From Candidatus Aenigmatarchaeota archaeon (GTDB taxonomy: Archaea > Aenigmatarchaeota > Aenigmatarchaeia > CG10238-14 > SCSR01), in NCBI GenBank assembly GCA_016187415.1, contig JACPJT010000004.1, forward strand, positions 169,392-233,391: 64,000 nucleotides of DNA. Direction: 5' to 3'. The position numbers and the translations under genes are program-made. Shown in pieces: positions 6,695 through 49,987 of the stretch; within the stretch, counting starts at the first letter, position 1; every line of letters begins with the position of its first letter. The notes under the pieces were generated by a model. The model was not told where the DNA came from and made no database searches. It saw nothing but the letters and a program-made list of their open reading frames with translations.

Positions 6695-8221
6695 TTTCTT
6701 CTCGCCGCCCTTTTTCTCAGGTTCCCTTAAGAAGAGCGCCCAGAACAAGATTATCAACACCACTGCGGCCACTATGGCTATCCCCAAGTATGTCAAATTA
6801 TTGCTCAGCGCCAACCTGCCCGATCCTGCAGTTACTTGCTCCGTCACATTGATTTTAACGGATGCGGACGCATTCAACTTGTCGCTCGAATACGCATTCG
6901 ACAATGCCACAAAATGCACATCCGACGGCGCTGTGTAATTAAGCGCCGAAACAGACACTACGAACTTCTGGGAACTGCCTTTGTTCACATCAACCGTCGA
7001 CGGCTCTATGGAAATCCAGCTTTCCGGAAACCCTGTGAAATAAAGACTGATATTCTGTATGTCAACGTCTCCTGTATTTGTGACGGTGACGAGGAAATCC
7101 TTTGTCGTATTGAATGGGACCACTACCGCATCAGTCGCCTGCAATTCTATTGACGCTTTCTTCTCAGGCTCCTGAGATTTTACCGGCTTTGGCAATTCAG
7201 TTACGACATTCAGCAAAGAACCGTCGCTTAGTTTCTTTCCGCCGGCTGTGTAAGTCGCAATTACTGTCCACTTACCGGTTACTTCTGTCGTATATACATT
7301 ATCAGCAAACACTCCCTTGGCTTCTTTATCAATACTGAACGTGGAACTCTTTGTGACATCCTTCAAGTTATCGTAAATGTCGCTCGACCATGCTGTAAGT
7401 GTGATGGGTGTGTTTGGCAAAGCCGTATCGTTGCTCAACTTCAATTGTATATAACTGACATCGGACTGTTTGACATCCACCTTAATTATTTTTTCAACAC
7501 TGCTACCAGAGGCTTTGATTTCCTGGCTGCCTTCTGTCTTCAACTTTATTGTGAAAGTCTTTACCCCGTTGTCGGAAGCTTGGAACGTGTAATCAGATGG
7601 CAATATTGCCAATGGGTCGGATGAAGAGAATTTAACTGTTCCTGTATAATCCGGCTTTACGTTTCCATTTTGGTCCAATGCTGTTACAGTAAGCTGGAAT
7701 GGTGTTCCGGCGGTAGGTGTGTTCAATGTCGCTACACCGAAACTTGTCAGCACTGGGTTGAAATTTGTCACTGATATTTTACCAAAGCCCTCAACGCCTT
7801 TCAGATCGACTGCGGTAGTCTGAAATTCAAATTTTCCGCCCTCGCTCGGCGAGACCGCAACAAAATTGAAATTAAGTGAATTGCCAGCGGATATGCCTGA
7901 ACCGGCGGTTGACCATATGACTTTGAAAGGCGATGCGCCAACAGAACTCCTTGTCTCATAAGTCCAACCGGCAGGCGTGCCAATCTCCTTAAGCATGTAT
8001 GCCGGCAGGCTGTCCTGCTGTGGAAGCATCATCTCGATTTTGTTCACATTGTCTCCTGCGAGATTGCTGACGGAAAGTGAAAAATCAATAGGACGATTTG
8101 GTTGAGTTTGAGCAGGACTCATATTAACCTGAACCACTGCGGCGAATGAAGATGATACGACAACAATGAGCGAAATTAAAAACGCCGAAATTAAAAGAGA
8201 TTTCCTCGAATACGAATGCAT
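6683..8221 (-). CDS. Membrane-anchored surface protein with Ig-like/CARDB-like domains
   Basis: Signal peptide (likely start MHSYSRK at 8221), VTNTGDVDIQNISL CARDB-like motif, C-terminal TM helix followed by a charged tail. Confidence 0.75.
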   Translation of the reverse strand: MHSYSRKSLLISAFLISLIVVVSSSFAAVVQVNMSPAQTQPNRPIDFSLSVSNLAGDNVNKIEMMLPQQDSLPAYMLKEIGTPAGWTYETRSSVGASPFKVIWSTAGSGISAGNSLNFNFVAVSPSEGGKFEFQTTAVDLKGVEGFGKISVTNFNPVLTSFGVATLNTPTAGTPFQLTVTALDQNGNVKPDYTGTVKFSSSDPLAILPSDYTFQASDNGVKTFTIKLKTEGSQEIKASGSSVEKIIKVDVKQSDVSYIQLKLSNDTALPNTPITLTAWSSDIYDNLKDVTKSSTFSIDKEAKGVFADNVYTTEVTGKWTVIATYTAGGKKLSDGSLLNVVTELPKPVKSQEPEKKASIELQATDAVVVPFNTTKDFLVTVTNTGDVDIQNISLYFTGFPESWISIEPSTVDVNKGSSQKFVVSVSALNYTAPSDVHFVALSNAYSSDKLNASASVKINVTEQVTAGSGRLALSNNLTYLGIAIVAAVVLIILFWALFLREPEKKGGEKKSDA

Positions 8222-8302: not shown

Positions 8303-9367
8303 CTAATTCGTAGAGTTTTTCGGTGTTGGTTGTCCGTTAACATCAAAATCGGCCAAGTTGTTGTCAGTATCCGCGGTAACTGACTTTCTTTGCAGACTAC
8401 TTCCCGAATCGGGCGGTATTGCAGGTGAATTTTCAAAAACATATGCAGGATTACCCCATCCGACAGCGTCAATCCTTCCGTTTTTAGCGTCTTCGCTCGT
8501 CTTGGTCCTTGGATCGAACGGGAAGACCGCAATCGAACCGTTGTTACTGATTTGCCCCAGAGAATACGGGCTTCCGCTAGATGTCAGCACGGTCCAATCC
8601 GAATTGCTCGTGTTGAAAATGTTTATCAAAAAGAACTTTCCGTGGCTCAGGATTGTTGCATTCGGAAACGCCCAGTTCCTGTATGTGTTGTTCCAGTCCC
8701 GGCTTGAAGAAAAATATGACAAATACCATCCTGTAACATTTACATCTGCGGCGGTTGGGTTGTACAATTCCACAAACTCGTTCGGCGCATTTTGCACCTC
8801 ATATACGATTACATGGGACAATGTTTGAGTTGTTTGATCCGATGTTGTATTCGTTGCGGTTGTTGTCTGGTTTGTTGTGACGCTCTGATTACTTGGAGAT
8901 TGTGTCTGGGACGATGTTGACGGTTGCGTCTGCTGCACAGTAGCAGGAATAATTATTGGACACTGACCGCAATCATCTACGCACGAAGAACAATTTTCAA
9001 CGGGTTCGCATATGCTATTTCCGCAACAGTCCTTAACTACTCTGCTCAAGCAATTGCCGGATGCACAAACATTCACAGCACATGTACTTGGACTACCCCA
9101 ACATTCCTTTGAGATGCCGTTTACAGGAGTATGCGAGCACAGGCTGTTGCTTGTCTCATTGCACCAATCGTCAGTGCAGGGATTTTTATCGTCGCATGTC
9201 GCTGGGCATTCCGTATCGCTTGAGGCATTGTTAGATGCATACTCATCAGAACTATTGGAGATACTGGATGAAACAAAATAGCCGGTAGGATTGAACTGCA
9301 CGAAAAGCGCAGAAATGCCTACAGTCAAAAGTATGGCTGCTGGTATGACCAAATAACTGATTTTCAT
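8303..9367 (-). CDS. Secreted/anchored protein with Cys-rich repeat region and lamin-tail domain
   Basis: CDDKNPCTDDWC and CCGNSICEPVENCSSCVDDC repeats, Thr/Ser/Gln linker, VIVYEV...EFVELYNPTAADVNVTGWYL (LTD). Confidence 0.75.
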   Translation of the reverse strand: MKISYLVIPAAILLTVGISALFVQFNPTGYFVSSSISNSSDEYASNNASSDTECPATCDDKNPCTDDWCNETSNSLCSHTPVNGISKECWGSPSTCAVNVCASGNCLSRVVKDCCGNSICEPVENCSSCVDDCGQCPIIIPATVQQTQPSTSSQTQSPSNQSVTTNQTTTATNTTSDQTTQTLSHVIVYEVQNAPNEFVELYNPTAADVNVTGWYLSYFSSSRDWNNTYRNWAFPNATILSHGKFFLINIFNTSNSDWTVLTSSGSPYSLGQISNNGSIAVFPFDPRTKTSEDAKNGRIDAVGWGNPAYVFENSPAIPPDSGSSLQRKSVTADTDNNLADFDVNGQPTPKNSTN

Positions 9368-9458
9368 TTAATATTTATTAGCATATTAAAGAATATCCTT
9401 TGTCCATTTCATCTTATGTCAATGGAATTCAATATAGTGTATCGGTCTGTGCCTAGGG

Positions 9459-10064
9459 GTGAGTATCTTGATTAAAGCAATTGTATTTGATTTTGGTGGC
9501 GTGGTCAGAAAACCCGGAATAATGAAACATATTTACACGGCTGTGGGAAAGAAATATGGTATTGACAGGCAAATCGTAAGAATGCAATTCCACAAGCTTG
9601 AACAGCCTGTTATTACAGGGAAAATTTCAATGAAACAATTCTGGCTGAGGCTTGGCGAGCTTCTCGGGGTTGAGTGGAAAGGACTTGAAAGGGTTTGGAT
9701 TAGAACTTATGCAAAAGGAGTGGGAATGAACAAAAGGGTTTTGCAGATTTTAGGACGCATCAAGAAGAAAGGCTACAATCTGTCCCTCCTCTCGAATGAG
9801 ATACCATCGCATGCAGAATTTAATGAGAGGCACGGCTATTATAAAAGTTTTCAGAATGTTTTTCTATCACACAGTGTTGGACTAAAAAAACCAGACAGAA
9901 GAATTTTCATTCATGTTCTTCACAAATTAAAAATCAAACCCGCGGATTGCTTGTTCATTGACGACCACGTAGAAAACATCGCAACAGCTGAAAAACTAGG
10001 CATCAGGTCCATACTGTTTGAAAATACTTCCAAGTTCGAAAAAGACATCAAGAATTATCTGTGA
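9459..10064 (+). CDS. HAD-superfamily phosphatase
   Basis: FDFGGV motif I, LSN motif II, KKPD motif III, FIDD motif IV. Confidence 0.9.
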   Translation: MSILIKAIVFDFGGVVRKPGIMKHIYTAVGKKYGIDRQIVRMQFHKLEQPVITGKISMKQFWLRLGELLGVEWKGLERVWIRTYAKGVGMNKRVLQILGRIKKKGYNLSLLSNEIPSHAEFNERHGYYKSFQNVFLSHSVGLKKPDRRIFIHVLHKLKIKPADCLFIDDHVENIATAEKLGIRSILFENTSKFEKDIKNYL

Positions 10065-10084
10065 TTCCATGGTTTCAAAACAAT

Positions 10085-11128
10085 TTAATTTTCATATAAC
10101 TTGAATAGTTTTTCTTTTTTTCGCAGAAGAGTGAAATTAACAGTATCTCTAAATCTAAGTATATTCTCCTTTCCATAAATGTTAACATAATAAACGTAAT
10201 ACGAATAACGTCGAGGTGATTTGAAATTTTTGTAATACTTTTTGAAACTTGTGTTTATTCTTAATTTGGTTAACAGTTTGGTTACGCCTAATAATCCTTT
10301 TCCATTTACACTGTCACATGTAATGAAGTTTCTTGCGACACATCCTTCACTATCAAAAAAACCTCTCAAAAAAGAAGAAATTATATCTTTATTCCTACTC
10401 GTCATTATTATTTGAGGAACACGCCATTTTCTTACTCCAAATTTCCCAATCGATAGCAAATCATTACAAATAAACTCAGGTGAAATGTAAGCTGCAAATG
10501 TATTTCTTTTGGGACGAAAGTTATAATTAAAACCAAGTCCATATACATCCTTAAAACATTTAATAAAGAATTTTATGAAATCTTCATCTTTTTTATTGAT
10601 TTCCAATTGAACAAAATCTTCATTAATGTGGCCATCCCCACAAAGAACTCCAAGAATGTACGCCTTTTCAGATGTTATTTTTTTAAAAGGTTTTGGTGGG
10701 ATGATTAATCTAAAATTACGTAAGAAAGTCTTAACCCTTTTTGTGTTCATGGATTCTTTTTTATTCCTCAAGACAACATTGTACTTAGTTAGCCATTTCC
10801 GAACAGTATTGCCTACTACATTAAATTTTTTACTTATCTCTGTGGGGCTCATACCTTTTTCCAAATAAAGGTTTAGTAAAATATCCCTTTTAGGTGGTTT
10901 TCTAGGTTTGAACCAAGTTGACTTGTTTCTACCAGGTATTCTATCATTATATAACCAATTCGAAATTGTAATCTCTGGTATCAATATTTTGTGTCTTGAT
11001 TTAATCAATCTTGAAATAAGTCTAGAACCAATCTTCTCTTTATTATATAACTGGACTGCAATTCTATGAAATTGCGATTTCTCTTTATCTGATATTTCTG
11101 CATACCTCAACATATATAGCAATAGCAT
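10085..11128 (-). mobile_element. Free-standing LAGLIDADG homing endonuclease with N-terminal HTH
   Basis: Two LAGLIDADG helices (YILGVLCGDGHI, FLRGFFDSEGCV); AT-rich; not inside another gene. Confidence 0.85.
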
Positions 11129-14056: not shown

Positions 14057-15121
14057 CTAATAGGTTTCATGTAATTGTCTTATTTCCTTAATAATTTTTT
14101 TTCTCAACTTGTAGGTATTCCCGTGCATGACATAACCGAACCAGCCTTCAAGCATCTTGCTTGCCTTGTCGCCAATTGTCCCCCCCCCATTGACGCATAG
14201 ATTGTTTAGCTTCCTTTCAAATTTATCCAGATTGCTCTTTCTTGGAAGTTTGTAGTGGTAGAACACCCTGAACCCCAGAAGGGTCACGCCATTGTGCAAC
14301 GGGACAATCTTTGACTTGCCCGGATGGAGCTCGAGATTTAGTCTCTGCTTTAAAAAATTAGTTATCAGCCATTTGTATAACAGAAGCCTTTCTTTTGAGT
14401 CGTGCAATATGACGAAATCGTCAACATAACGGATATAGTATTTTGCTTTCAGGTTGTGCTTGACATAATAGTCCAATTCGTTCAGATATATGTTGGCGAA
14501 GAACTGGCTTGTCAGATTGCCTAGAGGCATTCCCTTATTTGATATTTTAAAATCATAATTACCAAGGATTGTTTTTATCAACTGCAGGGTATTCTTGTCT
14601 TCTATTTTCTTTCCTATAATTTTCATCAGGATTCCTATATCGATCGTGTCGAAGTAGTGTCTGATATCGGCTTTTAATGCATATCCGACAACCATATTCT
14701 TATCCTTGGCGTTCCTTGTTAACCGACCGTTGTTTGCAACTTTCCTCTTGAACTCATCGAATCGTTTCAATCCTGCATGAACTCCCTTGTTTTTCCTGTT
14801 GGCATAAGTGTCGTGAATAAAGATTTTTTCGAATATAGGCTCTATTAAGTTACATATTGCGTGATGTATCACCCTGTCTCTGAAAGCTGAAGCATGAATC
14901 ACGCGTGTTTTTGGGTCTCTGACAATGAATCTCTTTAATGTTCTGGGTTTGTATGTTTGTGTTTTCAGTTCTTGTTTTAATTTTGTTAATTCGTCATCCA
15001 AGTTGGATTCAAACTCTTGTACATACCACTTCTTGCTTTTCCCTTTCTTGGCTTTCTTGAACGCTAGTCTGAGATTTTCAAAGGAGCACAATTTGTCGAA
15101 TAGATTGTTATAGGTTTTCAT
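14057..15121 (-). CDS. DGR-type reverse transcriptase
   Basis: FRDRVIHHA, KADIRHYFDTID, GMPLGNLTSQFFANIYL (SQ signature), YIRYVDDF; 354 aa with no endonuclease or maturase extension; adjacent TR/VR pair. Confidence 0.95.
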   Translation of the reverse strand: MKTYNNLFDKLCSFENLRLAFKKAKKGKSKKWYVQEFESNLDDELTKLKQELKTQTYKPRTLKRFIVRDPKTRVIHASAFRDRVIHHAICNLIEPIFEKIFIHDTYANRKNKGVHAGLKRFDEFKRKVANNGRLTRNAKDKNMVVGYALKADIRHYFDTIDIGILMKIIGKKIEDKNTLQLIKTILGNYDFKISNKGMPLGNLTSQFFANIYLNELDYYVKHNLKAKYYIRYVDDFVILHDSKERLLLYKWLITNFLKQRLNLELHPGKSKIVPLHNGVTLLGFRVFYHYKLPRKSNLDKFERKLNNLCVNGGGTIGDKASKMLEGWFGYVMHGNTYKLRKKIIKEIRQLHETY

Positions 15122-15450
15122 AAAAATCCTGGGCCATCTGGGTTATTCAAAACAGAACCCCTGTTGGAGTTCAGGTCTGTTGAAGATTTCCTGTTCTCAG
15201 GCTCCCTGTTCGAATTCAGGTTCGGCCTTTCGCGACTCACATTCTCACGGTCCCTGAAGTTCCAGATGAGAGCTTGAAGTTAGCCTAATCCACCAAACTT
15301 GCACTGCGATTTTAGTATTCGTTCATCACTACTAACTATCACCGCTGTATTTCATGGCTAAACGGAAAAAGCCCTAATGCACTATGGAAAGGCATGTAGC
15401 CCAGACTTTGCTGTCATCTGCAGTCAAGCACAGCCCAGGAATATAGAATT
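15122..15450 (-). ncRNA. Putative DGR RNA (about 170-nt leader + TR + 20-nt spacer before RT); ends approximate
   Basis: No ORF of 60 aa or more; TATA-like TTTAAAT at 15455-15461; leader segments 15433-15440 and 15400-15405 are complementary to spacer segments 15127-15134 and 15137-15142. Confidence 0.65.
15142..15273 (-). repeat. DGR template repeat (TR), 132 nt
   Basis: Aligns to VR 15917-16015 over 99 nt with 15 mismatches, all at TR adenines on the coding strand; rich in AAC/AAT; two extra segments of 15 and 18 nt. Confidence 0.95.
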
Positions 15451-15475: not shown

Positions 15476-16318
15476 TTATATTTCTGTAATAGGTACGCCT
15501 GCTCTTTTAGCCAACTCTTGCAATCTTTCGTATTGCGTGCGTGGCACTCTAACATTGACAAAATCTTCTGCTTCTCGGCTAGGCATCGTCGGCCATGCGA
15601 GAATTCCGCTTGATCTCACCCAACAACTTTTCCATATGCCGTCTCTTAATCCCCTGTAGGCATCTCTCACTTGTTTCTCTTTCAAGCCCTCTCCGCTTTC
15701 GAATCTTTTAACCTCGTCTCCCATCCACTGTTTGCTCGGTTCTTCTGGCTGGACGAATGCGGCTATTCTATTCACATCTTGTTCGTCAGAATTTACCAAA
15801 CCGTTCTTTTGAACGTATAATTGCGTCTCCCACAAATCTTCGCCTCTTAGTGCCACTTCAGGCTGGACGAAATAGCCAATGCCAGGTATTTTTATACGGC
15901 CTTCGCCTTCGGCGACGCTACCCAAAACAGAACCCCTGTCGGAGTACCCGTACTCAGGCTCCCTGCCCGAATCCAGGTCCGGCCTCTCACGGCCCCCGAA
16001 GCCCCAGATGAGAGCCCTTAATCCTTCATATAATTCTGGATTTGAATTTGTCCAGACATAAGTATTATCTGCTTTTAATGGTTTTACTGCATCTCGAGGC
16101 ACCAATAAATTCATCATTTCAGGCGTTATCGTTCCGTTTTGTCTCACCCAATTTACTTGTTTGAATGGATTGTCCATGCCCTCTAAATTAATCCTATAAT
16201 CCCTGTTTGCCCTGTTGACATCATCTACTCTATAACTAGAAATTATGATAGGGCTTCCATTTCTTGGAAGTTCCGCGCCTGTTATTCTTGGTGAGTATGA
16301 TTGAACAGCCGTTGCCAT
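15476..16318 (-). CDS. DGR target (variable) protein, probable CLec-like domain with a C-terminal extension
   Basis: Contains the VR in frame (ALIWGFGGRERPDLDSGREPEYGYSDRGSVLGS); preceding YVW...P...GL pattern resembles DGR CLec targets. Confidence 0.9.
   Translation of the reverse strand: MATAVQSYSPRITGAELPRNGSPIIISSYRVDDVNRANRDYRINLEGMDNPFKQVNWVRQNGTITPEMMNLLVPRDAVKPLKADNTYVWTNSNPELYEGLRALIWGFGGRERPDLDSGREPEYGYSDRGSVLGSVAEGEGRIKIPGIGYFVQPEVALRGEDLWETQLYVQKNGLVNSDEQDVNRIAAFVQPEEPSKQWMGDEVKRFESGEGLKEKQVRDAYRGLRDGIWKSCWVRSSGILAWPTMPSREAEDFVNVRVPRTQYERLQELAKRAGVPITEI
15903..15915 (-). promoter_or_regulatory. DGR retrohoming hairpin with GAA triloop
   Basis: TCGCC-GAA-GGCGA on the coding strand, 1 nt after the VR 3' end; matches the GRA-loop hairpins described for archaeal DGRs. 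Confidence 0.75.
15917..16015 (-). repeat. DGR variable repeat (VR), 99 nt / 33 codons
   Basis: 13 A>G and 2 A>T differences versus TR; no mismatch at non-A positions. Confidence 0.95.
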
Positions 16319-16333
16319 GATTTAATAGAGTAT

Positions 16334-16348
16334 AGTAAAGGATTTAAA
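16334..16348 (-). promoter_or_regulatory. TATA-containing promoter motif TTTAAATCCTTTACT of the DGR target
   Basis: Identical 15-mer at the same distance from the ATG upstream of gene 46338-47102. Confidence 0.75.
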
Positions 16349-46211: not shown

Positions 46212-46337
46212 TTCTTTCTAAGGTTTTTATCTCTTTCTAACATCTCCACACCCGATAGTGTTCATAGTACATTTGAAATTTCCATTATGTAGTCCGTGCT
46301 CATCGCCAGGACAGATAGAAATCGTGAATTTAGAAGC

Positions 46338-47102
46338 TTACTTATATTTAATTGGGGCGTCTGCTCCTATACCCAGAACCCCGCCGTCATACCTGCCCAA
46401 CGGCCCGCCCGCAACCGCGCCGAGACCCAGCACGCCAGAGCCCCAGCCGCACCCGACAGTAGATATACCGTTTTCATCGGGATAATTACCAGCCCAGTAG
46501 GAAATTTCCTTAGCATCGGGTCTTTCTTCAAATATATCATCATCGACAGGTATATCCCCTGAAATCGTGGTGAAAAATCCTGTTTTGGTAGGAATCACTA
46601 TATTTTTGGTGCTGTATCCACTAAGCGACCGTCTGTCTCTAGTTATCAATTGACCTGTTCCAGATGCGGATGGGTCTATTGGAAGTGCCAGAGCTTTCAT
46701 AATGGCTGTGTCATTGCTTAATCTTATAAGTTGTCCTGTTCTCGTCCACCAGGGCACCAGCACATTTTGCTTGTATGGCTGACCCTCATTGGAATAAGCC
46801 GCAGCTTTGTTCTCAGCAAATCTGACATGCTTCAGTCGCAAATCATCCGTTGATAATAAATCAAGTATACCGAAATCTTCTTCTGATGTTAATGCATAGA
46901 CTACCATCTCGCGTTTAGTATAGCTTCTACCGTCTGTAGTTCTTATTTCTCTTGAAACTCTTAGCGGATAAGGATGGATTTTAGCAACGGTGCCATTGCC
47001 TAGAGGAACTAGAAGAAACTCCGATTCTTTGGGGCGTATTGCATATTCAACTATCGCTTCTACAACTTGATCAGGTGATATTGTCAACGCCTTGGTTGCC
47101 AT
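46338..47102 (-). CDS. Probable remote DGR target protein with C-terminal VR-like region
   Basis: Tail SYWAGNYPDENGISTVGCGWGSGVLGLGAVAGGPLGRYDGGVLG parallels the target 1 pattern; 46371-46457 has 3 A in 87 nt; same promoter 15-mer and MAT start as target 1. Confidence 0.65.
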   Translation of the reverse strand: MATKALTISPDQVVEAIVEYAIRPKESEFLLVPLGNGTVAKIHPYPLRVSREIRTTDGRSYTKREMVVYALTSEEDFGILDLLSTDDLRLKHVRFAENKAAAYSNEGQPYKQNVLVPWWTRTGQLIRLSNDTAIMKALALPIDPSASGTGQLITRDRRSLSGYSTKNIVIPTKTGFFTTISGDIPVDDDIFEERPDAKEISYWAGNYPDENGISTVGCGWGSGVLGLGAVAGGPLGRYDGGVLGIGADAPIKYK

Positions 47103-47117
47103 GATTAATTAGTAAAC

Positions 47118-47132
47118 AGTAAAGGATTTAAA
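47118..47132 (-). promoter_or_regulatory. TTTAAATCCTTTACT promoter motif, copy 2
   Basis: Identical to 16334-16348, same offset from the ATG. Confidence 0.75.
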
Positions 47133-49094: not shown

Positions 49095-49913
49095 TTAATA
49101 CACAGTTTTTGGTGAGATATTATAATAAATAGATTTTGGATTATGCCCATAGCTACTTAATATATCTTCCAATTTCTTATTCTTTCTCGCTATGGAAAAT
49201 CCTATTTTATTTTTAAACATCTCTAAATTAATCTTACTACCTATTCTTAGTCTGAAACACACTGTGTGACCGGTAAACCCACCAATCTTTTTGTCTATGT
49301 TCTGAACTTTTATTCCCACTGCCTCTAACAGAACTTTAACTAAACGTATCAACTCTTCATCTGTATTAAAAAGAGCTACAAACCTGGTTGATGTTCTCGG
49401 GGTGTTTAAGTTAGATCCTGACACATTCCCTTCTGAATCAAACATACCTCGTAAAAAATTAACTTTTATTTCTTCATTGGCATTGACTAAATCAGATATA
49501 TCGAACTCTTTTAAAAATTCGGCAGCCCTTAAAGAGTAAAGTTGTACTGTGTACAAACCTTTGTTTTCATTAAAATCAAATTGAGCTTTTAATCCACTCC
49601 ATTTTTCTAATTGGTTGTGAAATGTTTGTGCAAAGTCTTTATCCTTCACTTCTAATCCTATCTGACCCTTTGTACCTTTTGCTTTGATACTGACATAACC
49701 ATCACCCATTAAAACACCTCTGATATATCCGAGTTCGGAGGAAAGTTTATTAAAATTGGATTTCAGAAAATGTCCTTTAGGGATTTTCCCTCTCTTAACC
49801 CAATCAATAATTGTACCTGGATAAGCAACGTTAAGTTTTTTTGATATTTCTTTGTAAGTAAATCCTTCCTTTCTTAATTCAAATGCTCTTTCATACTGTT
49901 CTTTTGTGTACAT
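49095..49913 (-). mobile_element. Free-standing LAGLIDADG homing endonuclease with N-terminal HTH
   Basis: YIRGVLMGDGYV and FLRGMFDSEGNV; likely start MYTKEQ; AT-rich. Confidence 0.85.
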
Positions 49914-49987
49914 TGTTAACTCGCTAATTTTACTTAAAATACCACAAGAATTATATATTAAATAAATTCCAAACATTAAGTGATTAT

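Follow-up and report, generated by a model that had tools for sequence, protein, structure and literature searches.

A probable retroelement-diversified gene apart from its template in an Aenigmatarchaeota archaeon, and related templates that may be split by small introns

Introduction

How can a gene bear the marks of diversification by a retroelement when the nearest template does not fit it? The question is raised by T2, a gene in a 64,000-nt stretch of DNA from a Candidatus Aenigmatarchaeota archaeon (contig JACPJT010000004.1 of assembly GCA_016187415.1, positions 169,392 to 233,391; hereafter the window). The window also holds the cassette of a diversity-generating retroelement (DGR), in which the target gene T1 is followed on the minus strand by an RT-16 structured RNA, a template repeat (TR1) and a reverse transcriptase (RT). 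Here, we report a computational analysis which argues that T2 is a DGR-written variable-protein gene. Its variable region (VR2) would stem from a template of the RT-16/TR/RT type that lies next to its homologs in DPANN archaea, and not from TR1, and the gene now stands apart from any cassette. We put the probability of this reading at about 85%.

According to the proposed mechanism, cDNA would be copied from a template RNA whose adenines are misread, here mostly as G, and by mutagenic retrohoming this cDNA would replace the C-terminal ~100 nt of T2. We infer the retrohoming into the window's copy of T2, the roles of the hairpin and the 3' flank described below, and ligand binding by the T2 protein. 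The most novel finding concerns the templates themselves: it is a putative split-template architecture, which includes the window's own TR1. The coordinates of all features are collected in Table 1.

Variable region of T2

The base composition at the end of T2 is exceptional. On the coding strand, positions 46371-46457 contain 3 A, 19 C, 46 G and 19 T, corresponding to 74.7% GC compared with 41% for the whole window, and a scan of both strands identified this as the sole place in the window with no more than five A in an 87-nt stretch. GGC makes up 7 of the 13 glycine codons in T2 residues 212-245, versus 28% in long open reading frames (binomial p = 0.043), and T1 and T2 each start ATGGCAAC. 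The initial annotation, made from the letters of the window, had pointed to the A-poor, GC-rich tail, its many GGC codons and the like openings of the two genes, and was right on all three. It had also seen a parallel between the T1 and T2 protein patterns, which was not confirmed; BLASTP gave no significant match (best E = 0.71), hhalign of the two families returned a probability of 2.6%, and homology between T1 and T2 was dropped.

T2 has five close homologs (52-71% identity) and matches 34 clusters in a 50%-identity library (E <= 0.001), nearly all of ~240-270 amino acids; a Pfam search of T2 and 32 family members gave no match. The codon alignment of the six closest genes contains a C-terminal block of ~31 codons, in which NNC/NNG codons take up to four values and the codons between them (TGG, TCT, CTC, CCG and TTG) are nearly or fully invariant in nucleotides. 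At codon positions 1, 2 and 3, variable columns number 18, 21 and 14 of 31 in this block, compared with 96, 85 and 140 of 187 in the rest of the gene (six homologs; Fisher p = 0.0013 for position 3). The block is 61-80% identical regardless of the identity of the gene (61-92%). For instance, the homologs P0002 and P0003 share 92% identity outside the variable region (VR) and 73% inside, P0001 and P0004 share 67% outside and 80% inside, and the values for P0002, P0003 and P0005 taken together are 90-92% and 72-77%. Variation at the first two codon positions, set between invariant codons and uncoupled from gene divergence, is the mark of a stretch that a conserved template has overwritten many times while fixed positions were randomised. 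This alignment pattern supports the assignment of T2 to a DGR-diversified protein family. The 3' flank of the VR contains the columns GAC GCC CC, invariant in all homologs at gene identities of 62-92%, and in T2 this GC-rich flank is a candidate for a target element resembling the initiation of mutagenic homing (IMH) sequence.

Cognate template in related archaea

A degenerate pattern made from the invariant VR columns was used to scan genome and metagenome collections. The VR pattern was found on one GTDB genome contig, belonging to a metagenome-assembled genome of an uncultured archaeon (locus L009); in the collections scanned, the T2-type template pattern had no match beyond relatives, and a search for related loci with alignment A1 yielded only L010. 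At L009, the hairpin that lies behind T2 is also found after the T2 homolog. A complete RT-16 RNA comes next, then a second copy of the VR sequence that constitutes the template repeat (TR), and finally an RT close to that of the window. L010 (a JGI contig) and L004 (an ENA contig) have the same order, of which L008 covers only the beginning. A full-length RT-16 between target and TR is present in the window and at L009, L012, L013 and L015.

The L009 TR aligns to its own VR with 75 matches, 23 mismatches at the 31 TR adenines and 2 non-A mismatches. Aligned to VR2 of the window over 100 columns, the same TR gives 68 matches, 28 mismatches at adenine sites and 4 at other bases. Since a template of this type fits VR2 even though the T2 gene and its L009 homolog are merely 67% identical, VR2 would have been written well after the two lineages split. 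The proposal that T2 is a DGR target thus gains support from two sides, the NNC/NNG variability of its homologs and the adenine-specific TR next to them.

The nearest available template is TR1, which might have diversified T2 if it has since diverged strongly, or if it acts through another register or splice form. TR1 does have partial similarity to the T2-type TR of L009 (score 38, 54 of 69 columns, one insertion element shared), and both end in CTG..AATAA(C/T). Nevertheless, the best A-tolerant gapped alignment of TR1 to VR2 covers 42 columns with 6 non-A mismatches, as against 4 in 100 columns for the foreign L009 TR. The mismatch of the T2 tail to the local TR had been recognised from the outset, and it makes TR1 an extremely improbable source of VR2.

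Promoter shared by DGR targets

T1 and T2 had been annotated as sharing a promoter. The exact 15-mer TTTAAATCCTTTACT occurs twice in the window, both times on the minus strand, and in each case lies 15 nt from ATGGCAAC. With up to two mismatches allowed there are three matches in the window, compared with 0.42 expected, and none of 100 shuffles reached three. The motif (T/C)TTAAAT(C/T)CTTTACT is located 15-16 nt ahead of the start codon (23 nt in L015) and was found, with 0-2 mismatches, upstream of DGR targets in the window and at L004, L005, L008, L009, L010, L012, L013, L014 and L015; these targets belong to three unrelated protein families. The shared promoter is exact in sequence and spacing and conserved before DGR targets in eight genomes, and judged by this distribution the 15-mer is a cassette-typical promoter. 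A promoter 15-16 nt before the ATG corresponds to archaeal promoter geometry with a leaderless or nearly leaderless mRNA, which the T2 transcript probably is.

It could be argued that the end of T2 is simply a glycine- and GC-rich low-complexity C-terminus formed without a DGR, and that the 15-mer is a general promoter consensus. Ordinary genes of the window are preceded by the looser TTTAAATCTTTT only, at three mismatches, which would suit such a view, as would the dissimilarity of the T1 and T2 proteins and the lack of a local template for T2. However, the exact CCTTTACT extension is conserved specifically before DGR targets in other genomes, the variability of the T2 tail is specific to codon positions, and a cognate TR with adenine-specific differences adjoins the T2 homologs. 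We consider this explanation very unlikely.

State of the T2 locus and predicted fold

Beyond the end of T2, the sequence resembles L009 as far as the hairpin and CTACA (46288-46312), where the homology breaks off. The T2 locus lacks the remainder of RT-16 as well as a TR and an RT, and a permissive Rfam scan of the downstream region detected no RT-16 remnant above noise. The hairpin is common to L009, L004, L008 and L006. In the proposed history, T2 would have kept a cassette-type promoter, the first hairpin of RT-16 and the GC-rich flank 3' of VR2, whereas the remainder of the cassette is gone. The suggestion that a second TR exists elsewhere, or has been lost, agrees with these results: the 64 kb contain no T2 template, TR1 is excluded, and the cognate TR type is known in relatives.

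AlphaFold2 with 32 family members produced a single-domain model of T2 (predicted local distance difference test score, pLDDT, 89; predicted template modelling score, pTM, 0.88), in which the VR forms two C-terminal strands and a loop. The best match of the model in BFVD is a phage tail collar fiber, which is weak (E = 0.026, template modelling score, TM, 0.40). The VR region of T2 also has a weak profile match to that of a third target family, found at L012 and L017 (E = 0.008, probability 5%); this family ends in LGFRPARR, a classical motif, and has sub-threshold FGE-sulfatase matches. On the predicted model, a C-type lectin (CLec) fold for T2 is possible.

Several results weigh against T2 being a DGR-written gene. 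The first group concerns the template. An ungapped adenine-wildcard scan of both strands of the window with the T2 tail gave A-rich chance matches only, a search of the window for an L009-type TR exon and a second RT-16 core found no second cassette, and an intron-aware search for chained exons in the window returned only chains with templates of more than 50% A, while recovering all four L009 exons as a positive control. The second group concerns the fold: Foldseek of the T2 model against the PDB found nothing below E = 0.7 and no significant CLec match, and the T2 family profile had no match among PDB sequences. Next, the loci of P0002 and P0005 (L005 and L007) have neither a cassette nor the downstream hairpin, which makes the necessity of the hairpin doubtful. 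Finally, the consensus contigs of three runs match the window with 100% identity across 1401 nt at the T2 locus, and the VR of the L009 lineage is unchanged in three strains that carry 2-7 single-nucleotide polymorphisms elsewhere in the gene.

The hairpin may be dispensable for targeting, or the L005 and L007 copies may be fossils. The VRs of P0002 and P0005, the closest relatives of T2, are very different even though neither gene adjoins a cassette, so diversification in trans is apparently possible and T2-family targets can apparently be served in this way. The identical T2 in three samples, together with the unchanged VR of the L009 lineage, gives no sign of current turnover at T2. As a DGR-written gene, T2 would be a remote target if a second template beyond the 64 kb serves it in trans, or else a target that was orphaned recently; the odds of the two are roughly even.

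Insertions in the template repeats

We compared every readable TR/VR pair of this RT clade, counting L010 as a duplicate of L009 and L014 as a duplicate of L013. With a threshold of 10 nt, the TRs of these nine cassettes contain 20 insertions that their VRs lack, each 15-33 nt long, and VR-only insertions number zero. The non-A positions flanking the insertions match almost perfectly between TR and VR. Several of the lengths (e.g. 16, 19 and 31 nt) are not multiples of three, so that copying into the VR would frameshift the target.

All insertions fit one layout, in which a 4-nt segment is followed by 2 nt, a junction, an intron that ends in the complement of the segment plus 2 nt, and a second junction. 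With slashes at the junctions, examples are ACGC ga/a TGGCaactGCCA GCGT aa/a, CAGG aa/a TCTTTaatgAAAGA CCTG aa/c and TTCG aa/a TTTGT..ACAAA CGAA aa/t; the motif of TR1 insertion B is also present in the TRs of L009 and L015. In the archaeal bulge-helix-bulge (BHB) motif, a 3-nt bulge lies on either side of a 4-bp helix (PMC6379350), and cleavage takes place after the second of the three bulge nucleotides (PMC12397907). Taking the latter source and the canonical 37/38 tRNA intron as the reference for splice geometry, the TR/VR junctions are compatible with BHB cut sites in 17-20 of the 20 insertions, with an ambiguity of 1-9 positions that comes from the A-rich flanks. At the strictly junction-compatible placement, all four helix pairs form in 12 of 20 and at least three in 17 of 20. 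Random pseudo-introns in the same TRs average 2.8 of 20, and none of 5000 sets reached 12. Homologous insertions are not independent, and about four distinct helix sequences are represented. In the type A helix, 90.6% of cells across eight cassettes are paired compared with 0-47% when the helix is slid, and one pair covaries between AU and GC. The inner helix differs between homologs (TGGC/GCCA to CAAG/CTTG) and in many insertions abuts exactly, as in TGGC/GCCA, CAAG/CTTG, TCTTT/AAAGA, TTTGTAG/CTACAAA and TTTGT/ACAAA. The outer helix has only 1-2 bp, which corresponds to the relaxed helix-bulge-helix (HBh') form. ARAGORN, run as a positive control for intron geometry, returned no usable intron-containing tRNA.

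Two loci from different samples with the same TR, L011 and L012, show the clade at work. Their RT-16/TR region, RT and shared ~300-nt target 3' end (compared over L011 1-330 and L012 625-940) are identical except in the VR. Inside the VR, the differences lie at TR-adenine positions and in one 15-nt element with a weak helix (three of four pairs), which is present as an A>G-mutated copy in one VR allele and missing from the other. Differences so restricted to the VR indicate that the DGR is active and that one and the same template can give copies with or without the element; by this comparison, the RT clade of the window is demonstrably active.

A reading that we find moderately probable is that the templates of this clade, including TR1 and the T2-type TR, hold one to three BHB mini-introns. 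The tRNA-splicing endonuclease EndA and a ligase of the host would remove them before reverse transcription or as a condition for it, the VR would be colinear with the spliced template only, and weak in-frame introns would sometimes be retained, as at L011/L012, giving length variation of the variable protein. Alternatively, the insertions may not be RNA introns at all, but reflect template jumping of the RT over hairpins, post-homing slippage deletion at A-rich microhomologies, or decay of inactive templates. The A-rich junctions with their positional ambiguity, the weakness of the outer helix and the 3 of 20 insertions with fewer than three pairs at the strict junction all speak for this second explanation, which we nonetheless regard as unlikely. 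All 20 indels fall on the TR side and include frame-breaking lengths, and the near-perfect non-A matching beside them speaks against template decay. Removal of whole hairpins predicts 23 nt, not 19 nt, for the second L009 insertion, and the junctions are offset on both strands by the helix plus 2 nt, just as the archaeal splicing endonuclease cuts. Template jumping and post-homing deletion are less consistent with junction geometry and frame than splicing, which would be the most economical explanation.

Three further observations touch on splicing in these lineages. The family members P0009 and P0013 (A2 columns ~311-315) have a five-residue insert that ends in L and is followed by D-D, exactly where the L009 TR has its third insertion (..CTG/AAC GAC); these inserts may be a retained in-frame 15-nt element. 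At L013, an Rfam tRNA match at 7692-7791 spans 100 nt compared with 71 nt for the model and was missed by ARAGORN; the likely cause is at least one non-canonical intron in the tRNA, which fits a broad-specificity EndA in the lineage. At L015, the DGR RT is followed at a distance of 1.4 kb by genes for RtcB ligase and archease (8477-10385). Both are archaeal housekeeping genes and the proximity is probably a coincidence.

Local cassette and neighbouring genes

TR1 and VR1 agree in 84 aligned positions. They differ at 17 adenines of the TR, in 15 cases by A>G, and at a single other base, which lies at the edge of the alignment. The window RT has homologs of 56-80% identity, and relatives adjoin TR/VR pairs at eight other loci. 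Few RT homologs carry a source name; these include several from Aenigmatarchaeota and others from Woesearchaeota and Nanoarchaeia. A viral collection scanned with the RT-16 core and the RT gave no match.

Substitutions at TR adenines are nearly exclusively A>G in VR1 (15/17), L011 (18/18) and L012 (16/17), and a mixture of G, T and C in L009, L016 and L018. RT bias, selection for glycine codons or some other cause may underlie these lineage differences. T1 has a long extension in its C-terminal half (15476-15900) that is missing from T1-like homologs; the end of this extension weakly resembles a ribbon-helix-helix domain, at a sub-threshold score (PF12651, E = 0.0075). In several genomes, stand-alone genes of the repeated helix-turn-helix (HTH) plus LAGLIDADG_3 type are located no more than a few kilobases from a DGR cassette or target, which may simply reflect how abundant such genes are there.

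Table 1. Positions of the features discussed and lengths of the insertions confined to template repeats. Positions are those of the window unless a locus is named; slashes mark junctions.
Feature	Positions	Strand	Remarks
T2 gene	46338..47102	-	254-aa open reading frame; proposed DGR variable-protein gene; no Pfam match
VR2, variable region of T2	46369..46468	-	A-poor core 46371-46457
GC-rich 3' flank of VR2	46354..46368	-	..GGAGCAGACGCCCC; candidate IMH-like element
Hairpin + CTACA	46288..46312	-	GTCCTGGCGATGAGCACGGACTACA; 25 nt; matches first hairpin of RT-16 after T2 homologs
T2 promoter 15-mer	47118..47132	-	TATA-like TTTAAAT + CCTTTACT; 15 nt before ATG
T1 promoter 15-mer	16334..16348	-	identical to that of T2
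T1, local DGR target gene	15476..16318	-	280 aa
VR1	15917..16015	-	mid-gene in T1; from TR1/VR1 alignment
RT-16 RNA (Rfam RF03019)	15275..15439	-	between T1 and TR1; 88.1 bits, E=1.6e-12; full-length model match
TR1, local template repeat	15142..15273	-	pairs with VR1, not T2
TR1 insertion A	15229..15243	-	15 nt, absent from VR1; CGTG ag/a atgtgagt CGCG aa/a
TR1 insertion B	15170..15187	-	18 nt, absent from VR1; CAGG aa/a tcttcaacaga CCTG aa/c
DGR reverse transcriptase	14057..15121	-	354 aa; PF00078 E=7.9e-19
Repeated-HTH + LAGLIDADG_3-type genes	10085..11128, 49095..49976	-	
Repeated-HTH + LAGLIDADG_3-type genes	L009 1664-3046; L016 7286-8074; L017 7606-8014		
TR-only insertions, window TR1			15, 18 nt
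TR-only insertions, L009 / L010			15, 19, 15 nt
TR-only insertions, L011			21, 19 nt
TR-only insertions, L012			15, 21, 19 nt
TR-only insertion, L013 / L014			15 nt
TR-only insertions, L015			15, 21 nt
TR-only insertions, L016			16, 31 nt
TR-only insertions, L017			15, 21, 18 nt
TR-only insertions, L018			18, 33 nt

Discussion

The DGRs of DPANN archaea and of bacteria of the candidate phyla radiation (CPR) were reportedly the subject of work by Paul and co-workers in 2017. Known DPANN/CPR systems (Paul et al., 2015; PMC4372165) resemble those described here in several respects: the RT belongs to the same broad clade, target, TR and RT form a compact cassette, TR/VR differences are adenine-specific, and extra targets occur away from the cassette. 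There are, however, distinguishable differences. The T2 family lacks a Pfam or CLec assignment, the cognate TR is absent from the window, and the TRs of the present clade hold short insertions missing from their VRs.

A second comparison is offered by the BPP-1 DGR with its Mtd, TR, Avd and bRT components (PMC3240598). There, too, the VR lies at the 3' end of the target and mutagenesis acts on adenines, and the IMH and downstream hairpin of BPP-1 (PMC3240598) recall the conserved GC-rich flank of T2 with a hairpin just downstream. Unlike in BPP-1, the present cassettes showed no avd gene, a structured RT-16 RNA lies 5' of the TR, the TR abuts the start codon of the RT, and some lineages have a strong A>G bias (15/17, 18/18, 16/17). 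The RT-16 motif (RF03019) is full-length in the cassettes, and downstream of T2 it is represented by just the first hairpin and CTACA.

With respect to splicing, archaeal introns of the BHB/HBh' type are known from pre-tRNAs, pre-rRNAs and a few pre-mRNAs and are processed by EndA (PMC6379350, PMC12397907). The TR insertions share with them the 4-bp helix, the junction after the second of three nucleotides, the length of 15-33 nt, the occurrence of several per RNA and the often abutting inner helix, and DPANN-type EndAs accept relaxed motifs. Unlike known BHB introns, these putative introns have a retroelement template as their host RNA, and they possess a weak outer helix or none. In full-text searches of the literature, we found no paper that joins DGR templates with BHB motifs or a splicing endonuclease, and the only paper found to mention introns and splicing in archaeal DGRs as well was the description of the MyDGR server.

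An intron in a TR that is missing from the VR after homing is the classic proof of an RNA intermediate. In 2008, Guo and co-workers are said to have engineered a group I intron into the BPP-1 TR, and it was reportedly absent from the VR after homing. Unlike that engineered, self-splicing intron, the elements described here are natural, tiny and putatively protein-dependent. If truly introns, they would be the natural counterpart of the engineered experiment and would make the TR a new class of host RNA for BHB introns. This would also account for the failure of standard TR/VR finders, and of the initial annotation, to align these repeats over their full length, and finders expecting a contiguous TR/VR alignment would under-call or truncate these systems.

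With T2, an uncharacterised family of ~250 amino acids with no Pfam match or structural neighbour would join the proteins diversified by DGRs. T2 would also be a clear case of a target that has been uncoupled from its cassette while keeping its promoter and 3' elements, which helps to define the minimal needs of a target. If the TR insertions are introns, their retention would be a source of length diversity, and, more speculatively, they might prevent recombination between TR and VR copies that lie close together. They would likewise be direct evidence, at the level of the genome, that archaeal DGRs pass through an RNA intermediate, and would tie the function of a retroelement to the RNA splicing of its host.

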